From the IMG/VR virus record IMGVR_UViG_3300030497_000009: DNA of 28,521 bases; one strand, 5' to 3'. Origin of the DNA: a virus. Positions 1-11,074 of this stretch are shown here, in pieces. Numbering within the stretch: position 1 is the first letter of the stretch; every line of letters begins with the position of its first letter. The notes beneath the pieces are model-generated. The model saw only the letters and a program-made list of their open reading frames with translations. It did no database searches and was not told the origin of the DNA. Position numbers and translations under genes: made by a program.

Positions 1-306
1 GAAGGTGGCGACATCATTCTTGACTCGAACTACATCCAATACTTAAATAACCAAGCGCAACAAGAACAGCAAGAGAAAATGATGGCTCAACAGGGAGCTC
101 AAGGTGGCCAAGGAGACGACGGTCAAGGATTTGGAGGCAAAGATGTCTCTGGTGACAAAGACGACTCTAAGGAAGATGACGACGATGGTTTTGACTGGAC
201 TGACGACGAAGATGACGGTGATGAAAAAGAAGACACTAAAAAGTCACTCGAATCAGAAAAGCTAACTGGTGACATAAAGTTTCTGACGATAGAATGGGAT
301 GACTAA
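1..306 (+). CDS. Portal protein, C-terminal part (5'-truncated by window)
   Basis: Frame 1 is open from base 1 (EGGDIILDSNYIQYLNNQAQQEQQEK...) into the listed 79..306 ORF. The GGDIIL motif, acidic low-complexity tail and position just upstream of the prohead protease fit SPO1/Twort-like portal C-termini. Confidence 0.8.
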   Translation, partial: EGGDIILDSNYIQYLNNQAQQEQQEKMMAQQGAQGGQGDDGQGFGGKDVSGDKDDSKEDDDDGFDWTDDEDDGDEKEDTKKSLESEKLTGDIKFLTIEWDD

Positions 307-329
307 CAAAATAAAATAGTTTGTTAGTC
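301..329. promoter_or_regulatory. Perfect 10-bp inverted repeat at the portal stop codon
   Basis: GACTAACAAA (301-310) / TTTGTTAGTC (320-329), 9-nt loop. Followed by an AT-rich TATATATT element rather than a U-tract; function unknown. Confidence 0.45.
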
Positions 330-385
330 TCCTATATATTGTATGTGTCTAACCTATAACGCTTCACTGTAAGGTGGTGAGAAAA

Positions 386-1135
386 ATGAGCGAAGAATTA
401 TTCAAGTTCTTTCTTGAAGCCGATGTAGTTAAGTCAGAAGCGGAAGAGGGTAAACGCATTATCCGTGGTTATGCTTCCACACCAGCCGATGATAGACAAG
501 GTGAAAGTTTAGTCCAAAAGGGCTTAGACATTTCAGACTTCGTAACGCATGGTTGGCTAAACTATGACCATAATAATGAGATTATTCTTGGTTATCCAAC
601 TGGTAACACGCATATTGACGACAAAGGTCTATGGGTTGAAGGTGAACTTCTAAAAGGTGTTCCTCAAGCTGATAAGCTCTGGGACTTAGCGTTAGCCCTT
701 AAGAAGTCGGATGCTCCTCGAAAACTAGGTTTCTCTGTAGAAGGCAAGGTGCTGGAACGCAAAGGCAATTCAATCTTGAAAGCCAAGATTTATAACTGCG
801 CGTTAACTCCAAACCCTGTTAATACTGAGGCAACTTGGGAAGCTGTCGTAAAATCATTCAGACCAGATTCTGATATTGATATTGCGAAAGGGCTAGAAGC
901 TGGCTATGCCACAACTCCAGAAACACAGACTAATGGCGGTGCTTTACGCAAAGAAAGCCTAGAAAGTAGCATCAAGAATTTAGCCGATAACTTGCATGAC
1001 TCTTCTAAATGGCAAGAGGTTCGCAGGAACCTAGCTAACGGAGGAAGTGTAAGCAAATCCGAAATGCTTGTATACTTACAACTTTCGAAAGGCTTCTCAC
1101 GTGATCAAGCTCTTAGTATTTTGGATAAATATTAA
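386..1135 (+). CDS. Prohead (capsid maturation) protease, HK97/herpes-type fold
   Basis: Motifs IRGYASTPADDRQGE, NYDH (His) and LGFSVEG (Ser nucleophile), followed by ALTPNPVN. ATG 386 chosen over GTG 374 because AAGGTGGTG (371-379) is an RBS. Confidence 0.92.
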   Translation: MSEELFKFFLEADVVKSEAEEGKRIIRGYASTPADDRQGESLVQKGLDISDFVTHGWLNYDHNNEIILGYPTGNTHIDDKGLWVEGELLKGVPQADKLWDLALALKKSDAPRKLGFSVEGKVLERKGNSILKAKIYNCALTPNPVNTEATWEAVVKSFRPDSDIDIAKGLEAGYATTPETQTNGGALRKESLESSIKNLADNLHDSSKWQEVRRNLANGGSVSKSEMLVYLQLSKGFSRDQALSILDKY

Positions 1136-1149
1136 TGGAGGTGCAAGAA

Positions 1150-1932
1150 ATGACATTTGAAGAAAAATTAGCAAAGTCACTAGAAGAAATTGACGCGTTA
1201 GCAGATTCAATTCTTTCTAAGTCTGACGAGCCTGAAAAAGTCGAAGAAGAAGACAAAGTTCAAAAAGGTGTAGCACCTGATGAAATCTCTTCTAACTCTG
1301 ACGACGCTGGAAAAAAAGAAGGCGACGAAGATGAGGACGACGAAGAAGGCAAGGACGATGACAAGAAGAAAGACGACAAAGGCGATGACGCTAAAAAGTC
1401 AATCACTGATGAATTTACTGGTAGCGAAGCTATCTCAAAAGCTATGGACGTTTCAGACTTCCTTGCTGAGTTCACTCGTGTAAACGGTGACGTTTTAGAT
1501 AACTTACGTGAAGATATTCATAAATCTCTTGAAACTTCTACGCATACTGCGACTATTCTTGCGAAGTCTTTCGGTGCGATTATGAAGTCTCACGAGGGCT
1601 TAGAAGGTTTAGTTAAATCTCAATCAGCTCAATTAACAGAACAAGCAGAGATTATCAAGTCTCTACAAGGGCGTGTTGAGCACGTTGAGAAACAACCTGT
1701 AGTTCGTAAGTCAGTTATCAATACTCTTGAAAAGTCTTTTGACCACAGCGCTGGAATCACGTCTGAGGCAGAGCCTAAACAAGAGACATTAAGCAAAGGT
1801 GAGATTGCTGAAAAGTTATCTAACTTCGCTTTAAACGGTGAAAATGGCGTAGTAATCAAAGACGTAATCGACTTTGAATCTAATGGCTATTTACGCCCTG
1901 AAGTAAAAAACTTATTCGAACCAAAACAATAA
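1150..1932 (+). CDS. Putative capsid scaffolding protein
   Basis: Lies between protease and MCP. Acidic D/E/K-rich N-half, coiled-coil-like C-half, many hydrophobic-x-K-S motifs. RBS GGAGGTG (1137-1143) supports ATG 1150. Confidence 0.75.
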   Translation: MTFEEKLAKSLEEIDALADSILSKSDEPEKVEEEDKVQKGVAPDEISSNSDDAGKKEGDEDEDDEEGKDDDKKKDDKGDDAKKSITDEFTGSEAISKAMDVSDFLAEFTRVNGDVLDNLREDIHKSLETSTHTATILAKSFGAIMKSHEGLEGLVKSQSAQLTEQAEIIKSLQGRVEHVEKQPVVRKSVINTLEKSFDHSAGITSEAEPKQETLSKGEIAEKLSNFALNGENGVVIKDVIDFESNGYLRPEVKNLFEPKQ

Positions 1933-1947
1933 TCGGAGGTGCTTGAC

Positions 1948-3663
1948 ATGGAATTTGAAAACGGATTTGGAATGGGATCTGGTCAACAGGTTTCTGACCT
2001 TAACAAAGCATTATCAGCTGGTTACGCTACTTCACCTGATACACAAACGAATGGTGGCGCGTTCCGTGTTGAATCATTAGAAAGTTCTTTAAAAGTTTTA
2101 ACTTACTCTGACCAACATATTAAGTTTTGGAAGAAAATTCCAAAGAGCAAAGCTACAAATACTGTTGAAGAGTACAACCAATTAATCAGCTACGGTTCTG
2201 AAGGCGGTGGCTTCTTAACTGAAGGCGAATTACCAGATACTCAAGATTCTACTTACCAACGTAAAGCAAGCTTCGTTAAATTCATGGGTGTTACTCGTGA
2301 AGTAACGCATCCTATGACTTTAGTGAACTCAGCTCACGGTGACGTAGTTTCTCGTATGAACCAAGACGGTATCCTTTGGATGCTTAAGAAAATTGAAAAT
2401 GGTTTATTCTGGGGTGACTCTAAGTTAGGTGCTGGCGGTACTGAGTACGTAGAGTTTGATGGTTTGGATAAATTAATCCATCCTGAAAACACTATCGACT
2501 TAGCTGGTAAACATCTTGAAGAGAAACACATTAACTGGGGTTCTCAAATGATCCTAGAAAACTATGGTATCGCAACTGACTTGTTCTTACCATACGAAGT
2601 ATTTGCTCAATTCCAACAAGAGTTCTTCCCTAAAGAGCGTGTTATCATGCCTACTACTGGTGGAACTAAAGCTGGTGTTGTAGTTGACCAATTCCAATCT
2701 CATGGTGGTCCTATCAACTTCGAGCCTAACTTATTCTTGAAGAAAACAAAAGAAGTTCCGACTCAAGCTACTTCACCAAAAGCTCCTGCTCAACCGGCTT
2801 CAGTAACTGCGGCATTAGGCGCATTAACTAACGCTGAGTTTGCTAAATCAGGTGCTGGTTCTTACACTTACTATGTAACAGCTGCTAACAAACATGGTGA
2901 ATCAACTCCAGTTAAATTAGCAACTCCAATCGCTATCACTGGTGCTGACTTAGCTAAAGGTGTTACGTTAACAGTTCAGAATGCTGCTGCAACAGTATAT
3001 CCAGTTGATTACTTGACTGTTTACCGTACAGAAGCTGATGGAACTCAAGCTTTCCAAATCGCTCGTGTTGCTGTAACTAGTGCAGCTGCAAACGCTCAAA
3101 CTGTCGTAACTGACAAAAATGACACTATGCCTAATACGTATACAGCGTTCATGGGTGAAATGTCAGAGCAGATCCTAGCGTTCAAACAGTTAACTCCTAT
3201 GTTAAAAATGGACTTAGCTACGCTTGCTCCGTCTTACAGATGGATGATCTTAATGTATGGGATAAAAGATTTTTCTAAAATCGAGTGTCCTCTTGTAGCG
3301 TAAGTTACAAGTAATAAAGATGGGAAATTGCTGGAAACTCTGAGTATCTCAAGGTAGGATATTACGCAGTAATGACGTAACGACCCCTGAAAATCCGAGA
3401 GTGCAGACAATCAGCAGCCGAGCTTCCTAAGGAAGAAGGTTCAACGACTAAGTGGTTATAAGAGTAATCTTATAATCTGCGCCATCCCCCACGATGTGGG
3501 TGAAGATATAGTCTGACCTCTACAGCGATGTAGAGAGGTAGGCAGAAATGACCTATCCCACTTAGAGCGGTGGTAACAAACTTGGCCAGTACTTTATGCT
3601 CCTAAAAAGTTCTTGCGTTTCAAAAATATCAAAGCTGAATTATACAACGAACCAAGATTCTGA
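1948..3663 (+). CDS. Major capsid protein precursor, intron-split: join(1948..3263,3585..3663), 464 aa
   Basis: Twort/SPO1-like MCP motifs (GYATSPDTQTNGGAFRVESL, LFWGD, EFDGLDKLI). RBS GGAGGT 1935-1940. Removing 3264-3584 joins AT+G and restores the expected C-terminus ...WMILMYG-M-PVLYAPKKFLRFKNIKAELYNEPRF*. Confidence 0.95.
3264..3584 (+). ncRNA. Group I self-splicing intron (321 nt, no internal ORF) in the MCP gene
   Basis: Exon 1 ends in U and the intron ends in G. P1: GGGAU (3259-3263) with IGS GUCCU (3287-3291), U-G wobble. P2 CTTGTAGC-GTAA-GTTACAAG. P AAATTGCTGGAAA 3325-3337; Q AATCAGCAGCC 3409-3419; R GTTCAACGACTA 3439-3450; S AAGATATAGTCT 3503-3514. P3 GATGG/CCATC; P7 GACTA/TAGTC; P7.1 3456-3475; P9 CTCTACA-GCGA-TGTAGAG. 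Confidence 0.95.
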
Positions 3664-3690
3664 GTATAATTTGAAAGTTTTGTTTATATA

Positions 3691-3729
3691 ATAGAGTAGG
3701 GGTTAATTCCTCTACTCTATTTCAATTTT
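3691..3729 (+). terminator. Hairpin after MCP / before HNH gene (terminator- or attenuator-like)
   Basis: ATAGAGTAGGGG-ttaatt-CCTCTACTCTAT, 12-bp stem with one G-U pair, followed by TTCAATTTT (imperfect U-tract). Confidence 0.6.
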
Positions 3730-3742
3730 AGGGGGAAATACA

Positions 3743-4438
3743 ATGAACGCAGAATTTGTAGAGTGTCAAATATGTGGAAAGAAAATGAAGTGGATTCAAA
3801 ATAAGCATCTAAGCCAACATGGTATAACTACGAAAGAGTACAAGAAGATGTTTCCTAATCACCCGAACAAGACATCCGACATGCAGAAAAAGATAGAGGA
3901 AACTCGTTGGGGTGAGTACGAAACGATACACCCTAAAATAAAGAAATGTTTTAGGGAAGGTTGTGAAGAGAAGGTAGCTGAGAAAAGTAAATACTGTTCG
4001 TACAGCTGTAGAGCCACTGATAGGGCTAATAGCGACGCTAATCCTTTTAAGAATACAAAGACTAATCCAGCTTTTAAAACTGGTTCATCGAGTAGCTGGA
4101 AGCGTCAAAGAAAGATACGAGCCGAAATGGATAATCACTCGTGCGTCCGGTGTGGTAAAACGGGGCTTGATGGAAAGGCTCACAAGTACAGTGTGCATCA
4201 CATTATACCTAAGAGGTGTTTCACCCTTGACAACTTGGATGACCGCGATGATGTTTTTAATACGATAACTCTTTGCGGTATATGCCACAAGGAAGTTGAG
4301 TCAAGCTCTTTCTGGTTGCTTGTGCGGTTACTTATAGAGAAAGGTGTTTCACGAGAAGAAATCACCGAGTACCTCCGTAATGAGATAGAAACAAACGCTC
4401 CCTTTGAAGCCTTCATTACTAAAAGTACAGAAGAATAG
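3743..4438 (+). CDS. Free-standing HNH homing endonuclease with N-terminal zinc-binding modules
   Basis: C-terminal HNH/McrA-type core CVRCG...SVHHIIP...NTITLCGICHKEVE. N-terminal CQIC...H...H finger and a C-x4-C...YCSYSC module. RBS AGGGGGA 3730-3736. Confidence 0.88.
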   Translation: MNAEFVECQICGKKMKWIQNKHLSQHGITTKEYKKMFPNHPNKTSDMQKKIEETRWGEYETIHPKIKKCFREGCEEKVAEKSKYCSYSCRATDRANSDANPFKNTKTNPAFKTGSSSSWKRQRKIRAEMDNHSCVRCGKTGLDGKAHKYSVHHIIPKRCFTLDNLDDRDDVFNTITLCGICHKEVESSSFWLLVRLLIEKGVSREEITEYLRNEIETNAPFEAFITKSTEE

Positions 4439-4450
4439 CTCCGAAATTAT

Positions 4451-4478
4451 ACTCAGGTAGGATTATACCTGAGTTTTT
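4451..4478 (+). terminator. Rho-independent terminator
   Basis: ACTCAGGTA-ggatta-TACCTGAGT followed by a T-run. Confidence 0.8.
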
Positions 4479-4507: not shown

Positions 4508-4792
4508 ATGCAACTAAAAAATGAAAAATACGCAGGTCAAGCAAACGCAATCGTAACGGGCTTTGGAACTTTGTCTTTTGATGAAAAAGGTATCGTTAAT
4601 AACCCTAAACTTTCTGAGGATGCTATTAAAGCTCTAGCAGAACTTAAAGGATTTGAACTAATCGAATCTGAGGGCACTGAGAAGCCTGCTAAGGAAGAAA
4701 AGAAAGAAGAAGTATCTAAACCTAAAGAAGAGGAAAAAGACGCTGAAGAAGCTAAAACGAAGCGCTCACGTCGTAAGAAAACAGAAGAATAA
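4508..4792 (+). CDS. Small hypothetical protein following MCP (K/E-rich tail ending KRSRRKKTEE)
   Basis: RBS GGAGG 4496-4500 supports ATG 4508 rather than 4481. Occupies the position of the small conserved post-MCP gene of Twort-like phages. Confidence 0.8.
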   Translation: MQLKNEKYAGQANAIVTGFGTLSFDEKGIVNNPKLSEDAIKALAELKGFELIESEGTEKPAKEEKKEEVSKPKEEEKDAEEAKTKRSRRKKTEE

Positions 4793-9759: not shown

Positions 9760-10230
9760 ATGAAGAATCGAAATAAAATGCTATTAAAGCTTGACTTACA
9801 ATTCTTCGCTACGCAAGAGAAACAGACTGTTCACTCAGGTTCTACGATTCTCTTGATGATTGGGAATAAAGTAGTAGGGCGTGCGCAAGGTATTGACGCG
9901 CGTCGTTCTTTCGGTACTGAGCCGGTTATGGAAATCGGTTCTATCATGCCGCAAGAGCACGTGTACAACCGTTACGAAGGTTCCGTTTCTATTGAACGGT
10001 TCTTCGTTAAGAAAGACAACCTTGCTCAATTAGGCTTCGCTTCACTAGGTGAAGAAGTCTTAAAGCAAGATGTTATCGACATTGTGGTTGTAGACAAAGC
10101 AACGAAGTCTGTTATCCGAGCTTATCGTGGATGCTCAATCCAAGACTACTCTGAGAACTTCCGAGCTAATACCATTTCAGGTGAGAATGCTAGCTTTGTT
10201 TACCTCAAAGCAAGTGACACTACAAATTAA
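9760..10230 (+). CDS. Tail tube protein with a 16-aa N-terminal extension ending in a Prp-type motif
   Basis: KQTVHSG...IGNKVVGRAQ...RSFGTEPVMEIGSIMPQEHVYNRYEGS is typical of Twort-like tube proteins; directly after the sheath. RBS AAGGAGGT 9743-9750. Confidence 0.93.
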   Translation: MKNRNKMLLKLDLQFFATQEKQTVHSGSTILLMIGNKVVGRAQGIDARRSFGTEPVMEIGSIMPQEHVYNRYEGSVSIERFFVKKDNLAQLGFASLGEEVLKQDVIDIVVVDKATKSVIRAYRGCSIQDYSENFRANTISGENASFVYLKASDTTN

Positions 10231-10261: not shown

Positions 10262-10312
10262 GTACATTAACTGTAAACCTTCTAAGGGGGAGTGCAGTTA
10301 ATGTACTTTTTT
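10262..10312 (+). promoter_or_regulatory. Terminator-like hairpin enclosing the RBS and start codon(s) of the GIY-YIG gene
   Basis: GTACATTAACTGTA (10262-10275) pairs with TGCAGTTAATGTAC (10293-10306), 14 bp with one G-U. An inner CCTTC/GGGGG stem covers the RBS. TTTTTT follows at 10307-10312. Confidence 0.8.
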
Positions 10313-11074
10313 GTTTCAGGAATTTATCAGATTAGGAATGAAGTTAACGGGAAAGTTTACATCGGTAGCTCTTTGCTGGTTGCTAGTCGGTTAAAAGGAC
10401 ATAAAGGTCAACTTAAAAGAAACAAACATCACAACATAAAGCTTCAAAACGCTTGGAATAAATACGGTGCGGAAAACTTTACATTCACGCTGTTAGAAGA
10501 ATGTGCGGAGGAAAGATTAATTGAACTTGAACAGGAGTACATGGATAAATTTGACTCGATCCGAAATGGGTACAACATACGTGAAGCTGGGTCAATTGGT
10601 AGACACTCACCTGAAACAAAAGAGAAACTTCGAATAGTGAACCTCAACAGACCAAAGGAAATAAACGAACGAATCTCAAAGTCAAAGATGGGTCACAGCG
10701 TTTCTCCGGAAGCTCGACGTAAAATTGGTGACGCACAAATTGGAAATAGAAACCGTGAAGGAAAAACGTTTACTGAGGAGAGCAAGAAAAAGATGTCAGA
10801 TGCGCTTCGCGGAAGAAAAATATCAGAAGAGGTTCGACAAAAGATAGTTAATTCCCTCATTGGAAACACAAGAGCAAAGGGCAGAAAGCTCTCCGAAGAA
10901 CACAAACGAAAGATAAGCGAAAGCTTAAACAAGATTGATAAAGCCGAGGTTAACAAACGTCGTTCCGAATCACTACGAGGGCGTAAGCAGTCTGAGGAGA
11001 CAAAACGAAAGATAGCAGAAGCAATGAAAGGCAAGAAAAATGCCAAGAAAAGACCGGATAAGGAAGCAAATTAA
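10301..11074 (+). CDS. Free-standing GIY-YIG homing endonuclease with NUMOD3-type repeats
   Basis: SGIYQIRNEVNGKVYIGSS, conserved R, E (LEQEY) and GYN. C-terminal repeats HSPETKEKL, VSPEARRKI, FTEESKKKM, ISEEVRQKI, LSEEHKRKI, QSEETKRKI. ATG 10301 fits RBS AAGGGGGAG; GTG 10292 is the alternative. Confidence 0.92.
   Translation: MYFFVSGIYQIRNEVNGKVYIGSSLLVASRLKGHKGQLKRNKHHNIKLQNAWNKYGAENFTFTLLEECAEERLIELEQEYMDKFDSIRNGYNIREAGSIGRHSPETKEKLRIVNLNRPKEINERISKSKMGHSVSPEARRKIGDAQIGNRNREGKTFTEESKKKMSDALRGRKISEEVRQKIVNSLIGNTRAKGRKLSEEHKRKISESLNKIDKAEVNKRRSESLRGRKQSEETKRKIAEAMKGKKNAKKRPDKEAN

Follow-up and report, generated by a model that had tools for sequence, protein, structure and literature searches.

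A free-standing HNH endonuclease gene beside an intron-split capsid gene in SPO1-like phages: a candidate case of collaborative homing

The DNA analysed here, IMG/VR record IMGVR_UViG_3300030497_000009, is a stretch of 28,521 nucleotides (nt), which we refer to at its full length as the window, and is part of a large SPO1-like phage (Herelleviridae, Spounavirinae-type and Bacillus-type). Its major capsid gene, which is 76% identical in nucleotide sequence to those of Lysinibacillus phages LysYB1 and LysYB2 (LysYB1/2) and Bacillus phage YungSlug, is split near its 3' end by a group I intron and is followed by a free-standing gene for an HNH endonuclease. Such an anatomy, with an intron lacking any open reading frame (ORF) beside a free-standing endonuclease gene, matches the known arrangement of collaborative homing. 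With modest confidence, we propose that the HNH protein targets the very capsid site that is split by the intron, at a cut position that we infer from sequence comparison. The 3' end of the capsid gene appears to be the target because introns at this site were seen only in HNH-carrying genomes, because a second intron is inserted only 8 nt away, because tracts of sequence variation start close to the site and because intron-less carriers of the HNH gene are silently recoded there. We regard the collaborative-homing interpretation as partly supported by these patterns; the cleavage site, immunity through the intron and the co-mobilization of the two elements are putative.

Introns at the capsid insertion site

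The intron of the window, here called intron a, was matched by the Rfam model RF00028 at positions 3262-3535 with 68.8 bits (E = 1e-15; gathering score, 50 bits) over the full model, from 1 to 253. The last base of the 5' exon is the U at 3263 (GGGAT/) and the last base of the intron is the G at 3584. Joining 3263 to 3585 yields the conserved capsid C terminus ...RWMILMYGMPVLYAPKKFLRFKNIK..., which is unbroken in intron-less homologues, including the relatives designated L005 and L006, and the junction ...ATGTATGGGAT/GCCAGTACTT... given in an initial annotation of this DNA proved to be exact. That annotation had also described the intron as lacking an endonuclease, which holds, with the longest internal ORFs encoding 9 amino acids on the plus strand and 15 on the minus strand.

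Intron a is present at the same site in LysYB1/2, in a copy that is 86% identical (RF00028, 58.2 bits). Comparison of these two sequences, the window copy and the LysYB copy, revealed compensatory changes in 8 of 87 predicted base pairs and no broken pair. Moreover, a change from A to G at exon position -2 in LysYB2 is paired with a change from U to C in the guide sequence, a covariation within P1. Because of these 8 compensatory pairs, with none broken, and the P1 covariation, intron a looks functional and is under purifying selection. No further copies of its core were found by an exact-pattern scan of IMG/VR, and a blastn search of the phage collection found none beyond LysYB1/2, either with or without an ORF.

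A probe of 73 amino acids spanning the insertion site matched 750 Herelleviridae-type capsid genes in the isolate collection. The gene was contiguous at the site in 748 of them, and the two interrupted ones were those of LysYB1/2, both of which carry the HNH gene. Among about 70 HNH-less relatives in IMG/VR no intron was found at the site, all of these genes being contiguous. A different intron, here called intron b, was found in the relatives L009 and L099, both of them HNH-carrying; it is 305 nt long (RF00028, 55.2 bits), is inserted 8 nt further downstream, at GTAT/TA, and is unrelated to intron a, having only the core in common with it. Against this background of 748 contiguous isolate genes and about 70 IMG/VR loci, introns a and b were seen at the capsid site only in genomes that carry the HNH gene.

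The phage represented by L009 has a second group I intron (86 bits; G001:C1:106604-106877, designated L101), far from the capsid gene. A further apparent case of an intron at the site, L027, was rejected, since the capsid match ends at the insertion-site codon because of a divergent, truncated C terminus.

Recoding around the site and the proposed target

The clearest comparison is provided by a near-isogenic pair, L005, which has a flank of the HNH-less type, and L006, which carries an HNH gene 87% identical to that of the window. Their first 4286 nt contain 3 mismatches and the final 118 nt of the capsid gene contain 25, of which 24 are silent. This divergence extends from 38 nt upstream of the insertion site to the HNH cassette, and 13 of the changes fall within 45 nt centred on the site. 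The contig of L005 ends 45 nt after the capsid stop codon, and its assignment as HNH-less is made from the type of its terminator.

L086/L088 is a second HNH-carrying variant without an intron; its variant tract begins closer to the insertion site, 15 nt upstream. Silent variants common to L006 and L088 lie at positions -15, -14, -12, +4, +7, +8, +10, +16 and +19. In contrast, the window, in which the same type of HNH cassette is combined with the intron, is unrecoded at these positions and resembles L005 there. An HNH carrier with an identical but intron-less site, which the initial annotation had named as the case that would speak against its proposal, was sought and not found; the nearest sequences differ by 9 to 15 mostly silent bases. 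Between -13 and +16 the window differs from L005 at three positions, and all three match LysYB2, the intron donor type. These three sites may hint at co-conversion, which we regard as suggestive only.

The contigs of L005 and L086 come from one metagenome (3300025728), whereas L006 comes from another (3300009011). The contig of L086 starts inside the 3' end of the capsid gene and has both the recoded site and the HNH gene. HNH-less and HNH-carrying haplotypes thus seem to coexist in this metagenome, with the assembly breaking at the locus. We also tried the Leu codon that follows the site (CTT versus TTA) as a marker of sensitive and immune alleles. It was rejected, as it holds for HNH clade A and Bacillus phage S4-1 and fails for L098 and L113.

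In the mechanism that we propose, the HNH protein would be a free-standing homing endonuclease specialized for the intergenic position that separates the capsid gene from the DUF7349 gene in SPO1-like phages. Its likely target would be the conserved 3' stretch of the capsid gene encoding RWMILMYG(M/V)PVLYAPKK, spanning roughly -15 nt to +20 nt around 3263/3585, a long recognition site that would straddle both intron insertion points. HNH carriers would have to keep their own capsid gene uncut, and most would do so by silent recoding of the site, whereas in the window phage, LysYB1/2 and the L009/L099 lineage a self-splicing intron would split the site instead. When a relative with an unprotected capsid allele infects the same cell, that allele would be nicked or cut by the nuclease, and repair templated by the donor would copy the intron into it. 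With a conversion tract of sufficient length, the HNH gene, which starts 159 nt beyond the intron, would be transferred as well, resulting in collaborative (trans) homing.

Several observations weigh against this mechanism. Twelve of the 15 HNH-carrying lineages have no intron at all, which means that the HNH gene does not need one. The HNH homologues fall into three clades, A (window, L006, L086 and L098), B (L009, L099 and LysYB2) and C (S4-1, L092 and L089), and the copies of intron a in the window (HNH clade A) and LysYB2 (HNH clade B) are 86% identical in nucleotide sequence, against only 39% amino acid identity for the HNH proteins of the two. The histories of intron and HNH gene are therefore separate, and intron a moved independently. 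When only close relatives are considered, the association between intron and HNH gene (3 of 13 versus 0 of about 12) does not reach significance (p about 0.12). In the L005/L006 comparison, the clustering of substitutions near the site is statistically weak, with 18 of the 25 lying within the first half of this tract (binomial p about 0.03). A recombination boundary shows how far an exchanged segment extends, and a break at any point to its right, even downstream of the HNH gene, would also fit. Furthermore, L098 and L113 carry the HNH gene and no intron yet keep an unrecoded-looking Leu codon (CTT), and no single base separates carriers of the HNH gene from non-carriers.

The co-occurrence of intron and HNH gene, a check suggested by the initial annotation, was found in one direction, from intron to HNH gene, and not in the other. 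The further claim that the two elements form one unit was not borne out, given their separate histories and the prevalence of intron-less HNH carriers. The same facts favour an alternative, in which intron and HNH gene are two independent selfish neighbours. The HNH target would then lie elsewhere, for example in the spacer, in the neighbouring DUF7349 gene or in a part of the capsid gene further 3'. The introns would have landed in the capsid gene because the site is conserved and strongly expressed, and would have spread by ordinary recombination. A preference for conserved sites is general among group I introns, and capsid introns without such an adjacent homing endonuclease gene have been described (PMC3706429). 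We nevertheless consider two independent neighbours rather unlikely. Among more than 800 capsid genes, no HNH-less genome was seen with either intron; the insertion points of the two unrelated introns are only 8 nt apart; and the starts of two variant tracts are found 15-39 nt upstream of the site. The intron-containing allele is unrecoded whereas intron-less alleles with an HNH gene of the same clade are recoded.

The HNH gene and its slot

HNH homologues were gathered from the phage isolate collection, IMG/VR, JGI metagenomes, an index of 5.8 billion proteins and a full hidden Markov model search, the last yielding 17 representatives at E below 1e-30. The capsid gene immediately precedes the HNH gene in each of the 15 lineages with a readable upstream side, two of which have capsid proteins only 33-38% identical to that of the window, and the DUF7349 gene comes next in every contig that reaches that far. 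In the HNH-less YungSlug, L007 and L008, the DUF7349 gene directly follows the capsid gene. The family is single-copy in the three HNH-carrying records searched, those of LysYB2, S4-1 and the L009 phage (a contig rated 100% complete), these paralogue counts, like those of other introns, having been made in genomes of relatives. It is absent from the YungSlug genome, and a scan of genome contigs gave no match in bacterial genomes.

On the capsid tree, carriers and non-carriers are interleaved, with sister pairs such as L006/L005 and L111/L008 differing in the presence of the HNH gene, as expected for a mobile endonuclease gene. Judged from this distribution, it is best described as a locus-specific mobile gene with sporadic presence at a fixed intergenic slot. 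The S4-1 sequence (L003; PQ069208.1) contains at 9-3926 a single ORF of 1305 amino acids in which the coding sequence of a long tail-fibre-like protein runs into the final ~65 capsid codons. This fusion is probably a misassembly, since the record is marked UNVERIFIED and is partial; the HNH gene and the intron-less capsid 3' end can still be read from it.

The distribution also bears on a turnover scenario, in which the intron lost its own endonuclease gene and an unrelated HNH gene came later, leaving the adjacency as a relic (PMC10448857). Such a pathway has been proposed for the terminase locus of ICP1 (PMC10448857), and the separate histories of intron and HNH gene would agree with it. However, both introns are compact (a, 321 nt; b, 305 nt) and contain no remnant of an ORF, and neither the IMG/VR pattern scan nor the phage-collection blastn search revealed another copy of intron a, be it ORF-containing or ORF-less. 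In addition, the HNH family predates both introns at the locus and is more widespread there, which reverses the order expected from turnover. We thus judge this scenario improbable.

The HNH protein consists of a C2H2 zinc finger of the Ros/MucR type (residues 8-26), a C4 zinc ribbon (69-89) and an HNH nuclease domain (134-186). Pfam matches were obtained for HNH (PF01844, 28.1 bits; cut-off, 21.4) and, in the N-terminal part, for the ROS/MucR-type zinc finger (PF05443, 29.1 bits; cut-off, 25.4), and PHROG HNH families also match the protein, one matching PHROG being labelled terminase small subunit. In the 8 homologues of alignment A3, the zinc-module residues C8, C11, H22, H26, C69, C74, C85 and C89 are invariant, as they are in a set of 6 sequences. 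Also invariant, in A3 and in the set of 6, are C134, C137, H152, H153, N173, C178 and H182 of the nuclease domain, which comprise the His...Asn...His motif and zinc cysteines. Compared with L006, the nuclease half shows 0.004 nonsynonymous changes per nonsynonymous site (dN) and 0.72 synonymous changes per synonymous site (dS), a dN/dS ratio of 0.006. Because the catalytic and zinc residues are invariant and this ratio is so low, the nuclease looks functional and is under purifying selection.

The two halves of the gene differ in their divergence from L006. The zinc-finger half (3743-4141) has a dN of 0.13, and the nuclease half (4142-4435) encodes the same protein despite the dS of 0.72. From this contrast, either the presumed DNA-recognition half evolves much faster or the gene may be a recombinant. 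An AlphaFold2 model of the protein (predicted local distance difference test, 76) gave only generic HNH folds in Foldseek, namely, Cap5, McrA and the HNH protein of phage GVE2, all with E above 0.03, and a sequence search of the PDB with the protein returned no match.

These generic features could also suit a domesticated nuclease that does not home, being either associated with packaging, as are those beside terminase genes, or directed against host or competitor DNA. The PF01844 domain and its nearest folds are unspecific, the one PHROG label refers to a terminase subunit, and purifying selection is strong. On the other hand, the gene is absent from most close relatives, including the near-isogenic one, and is therefore not essential. 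The Ros/MucR-type finger and C4 ribbon that precede the nuclease domain plausibly serve DNA recognition, and the gene occupies one fixed intergenic slot with its own flanking hairpins. A domesticated role is, in our assessment, the least probable of the explanations weighed here, and highly unlikely.

The HNH start codon lies 80 nt past the capsid stop codon and 159 nt past the 3' splice site, in agreement with the distances claimed at the outset (80 and about 160 nt). HNH-carrying relatives in the clade of the window have hairpins on both sides of the gene, unlike the terminator of the HNH-less relatives L005, L007, L008 and YungSlug, which share a single, different type of hairpin after the capsid gene. 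The positions of these features in the window are given in Table 1. A sigma-70-like promoter candidate at 3641-3670 was dropped, as it overlaps the capsid stop codon, lies upstream of the hairpin and scored no better than shuffled sequence.

Table 1. Features of the capsid-HNH locus in the window
Feature	Position	Strand	Evidence or remarks
Major capsid protein, exon 1	1948..3263	+	76% nt identity to LysYB1/2 and YungSlug; homologues carry PF17236 SU10_MCP
Upstream half of proposed nuclease target (-15 to -1)	3249..3263	+	Codons for I-L-M-Y-G-M
Group I intron a, 321 nt, no ORF	3264..3584	+	RF00028; last base G
Internal guide sequence GUCCU	3287..3291	+	Read from sequence; pairs with exon end GGGAU (P1, U.G at splice site)
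Capsid exon 2, 25 codons plus TGA stop (3661-3663)	3585..3663	+	First ~19 nt, downstream half of proposed target
Terminator-like hairpin with T-run, between capsid stop and HNH gene	3690..3721	+	Kept in L006 and L088; part of the left flank of HNH type
Free-standing HNH endonuclease gene, 231 amino acids	3743..4438	+	AGGGGGA 6-7 nt before ATG
Terminator-like hairpin after HNH gene, right cassette flank	4451..4474	+	Kept in L085 and L088
DUF7349 gene, conserved right-hand neighbour	4508..4792	+	Pfam PF24040

The capsid ORF opens with a GTG at 1939, and the ATG at 1948 sits 7 nt after GGAGG. The ATG is the likelier start of the capsid gene, in agreement with the N termini of LysYB2 and L098. The prohead protease gene (window positions 878-1096) contains a stretch that is 41% identical to residues 20-92 of the N-terminal arm of the capsid protein, and this second match of the protease to the capsid arm recurs in all close relatives. 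The window has another free-standing gene of the homing-endonuclease type, at 10292-11074 on the plus strand, which encodes a GIY-YIG domain and two NUMOD3 motifs and directly follows the tail-tube gene (9760-10230). The structural module thus contains two endonuclease genes of different types, each of which follows a virion gene that is highly conserved.

Comparison with known homing systems

Collaborative, or trans, homing has been defined for the psbA intron and F-CphI of cyanophage S-PM2 and for T3-like phages (PMC3984707, PMC6083498, PMC10448857). The F-CphI target in S-PM2 coincides with the psbA intron site, which leads to immunity through the intron and to its mobilization in trans (Zeng, Bonocora and Shub 2009, as cited in PMC3984707 and PMC6083498). 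The locus of the window would resemble this partnership between a free-standing endonuclease and a group I intron. It differs in the nuclease, which has an Endo VII-type motif in F-CphI and zinc-finger and HNH motifs here, and in the interrupted gene, which is psbA there and the capsid gene here; cleavage at the insertion site was shown experimentally for F-CphI, whereas we infer it for the window HNH protein.

The same free-standing layout is found in a known pair of an HNH gene and an ORF-less intron that was proposed as an intermediate toward a composite mobile intron. That pair belongs to another phage family and another target gene, and the locus described here differs further in having many carriers with the HNH gene alone and a recoded site, and two unrelated introns 8 nt apart. 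In phage T4, mobE is likewise a free-standing gene of the HNH family beside an intron-containing gene, and it mobilizes the nrdB intron and flanking DNA in trans (PMC2790892). The nrdB intron, however, keeps a degenerate endonuclease ORF (defunct I-TevIII; PMC2790892), whereas introns a and b have none.

Intronless homing by the seg and mob genes of T4 provides the closest parallel for carriers without an intron, in that a sporadic intergenic gene targets a conserved neighbour gene. The donor is immune through polymorphisms of the site, and flanking markers are co-converted (PMC2988022; PMC3984707, Figure 5c). This model matches the 12 intron-less HNH-carrying lineages and the L005/L006 pair. 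It involves no intron, which at the window locus would be added as an alternative means of breaking the site.

I-HmuI and I-HmuII of SPO1/SP82 and gp210 of PhiPA3, all of them HNH enzymes from large lytic phages, nick an essential gene of a relative at the intron site, and such nicking can disadvantage a co-infecting phage (PMC11620839). These enzymes are encoded inside the intron, whereas the HNH gene of the window is free-standing. I-HmuI is a member of another HNH subfamily, one that has NUMOD modules. By analogy with gp210 of PhiPA3, the HNH protein of the window may also harm co-infecting phages (PMC11620839).

Introns in capsid genes have been described for Tuc2009 and for mycobacteriophage LittleE, the latter with a LAGLIDADG gene in the intron (PMC3706429), and a survey of introns in Bastillevirinae makes no mention of capsid introns or free-standing partners (PMC11878797). 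The collaborative-homing loci described so far amount to a handful, comprising psbA of S-PM2, the DNA polymerase gene of T3-like phages, mobE/nrdB of T4 and, as a proposal, the terminase gene of ICP1, and how such partnerships start has been posed as a question (PMC10448857). Collaborative homing is a rare arrangement, to which the window locus would add a case in a capsid gene.

More tentatively, the locus might keep side by side the first stages of a pathway proposed for how mobile group I introns came into being, a possibility to which we assign less than even chances. One stage would be the free-standing nuclease by itself beside a target altered by silent recoding; another would be the same nuclease family with one of two unrelated ORF-less introns, recruited 8 nt apart, as a shield for an unrecoded target. 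A stage with the nuclease inside the intron was not seen at this locus.

One group of phages thus offers a natural series of genomes without the HNH gene, with the HNH gene and a recoded site, with the HNH gene and intron a, and with the HNH gene and intron b. This series makes it possible to ask whether an intron and silent recoding are interchangeable escapes from one nuclease. That the capsid gene of Herelleviridae probably contains the target of a site-specific nuclease also bears on recombination and competition among phages that are used or studied together. If the locus does preserve successive stages of intron origin, introns would act first as immunity devices against a capsid-targeting nuclease, and the most conserved motif of the capsid gene would be a contested site between related phages.

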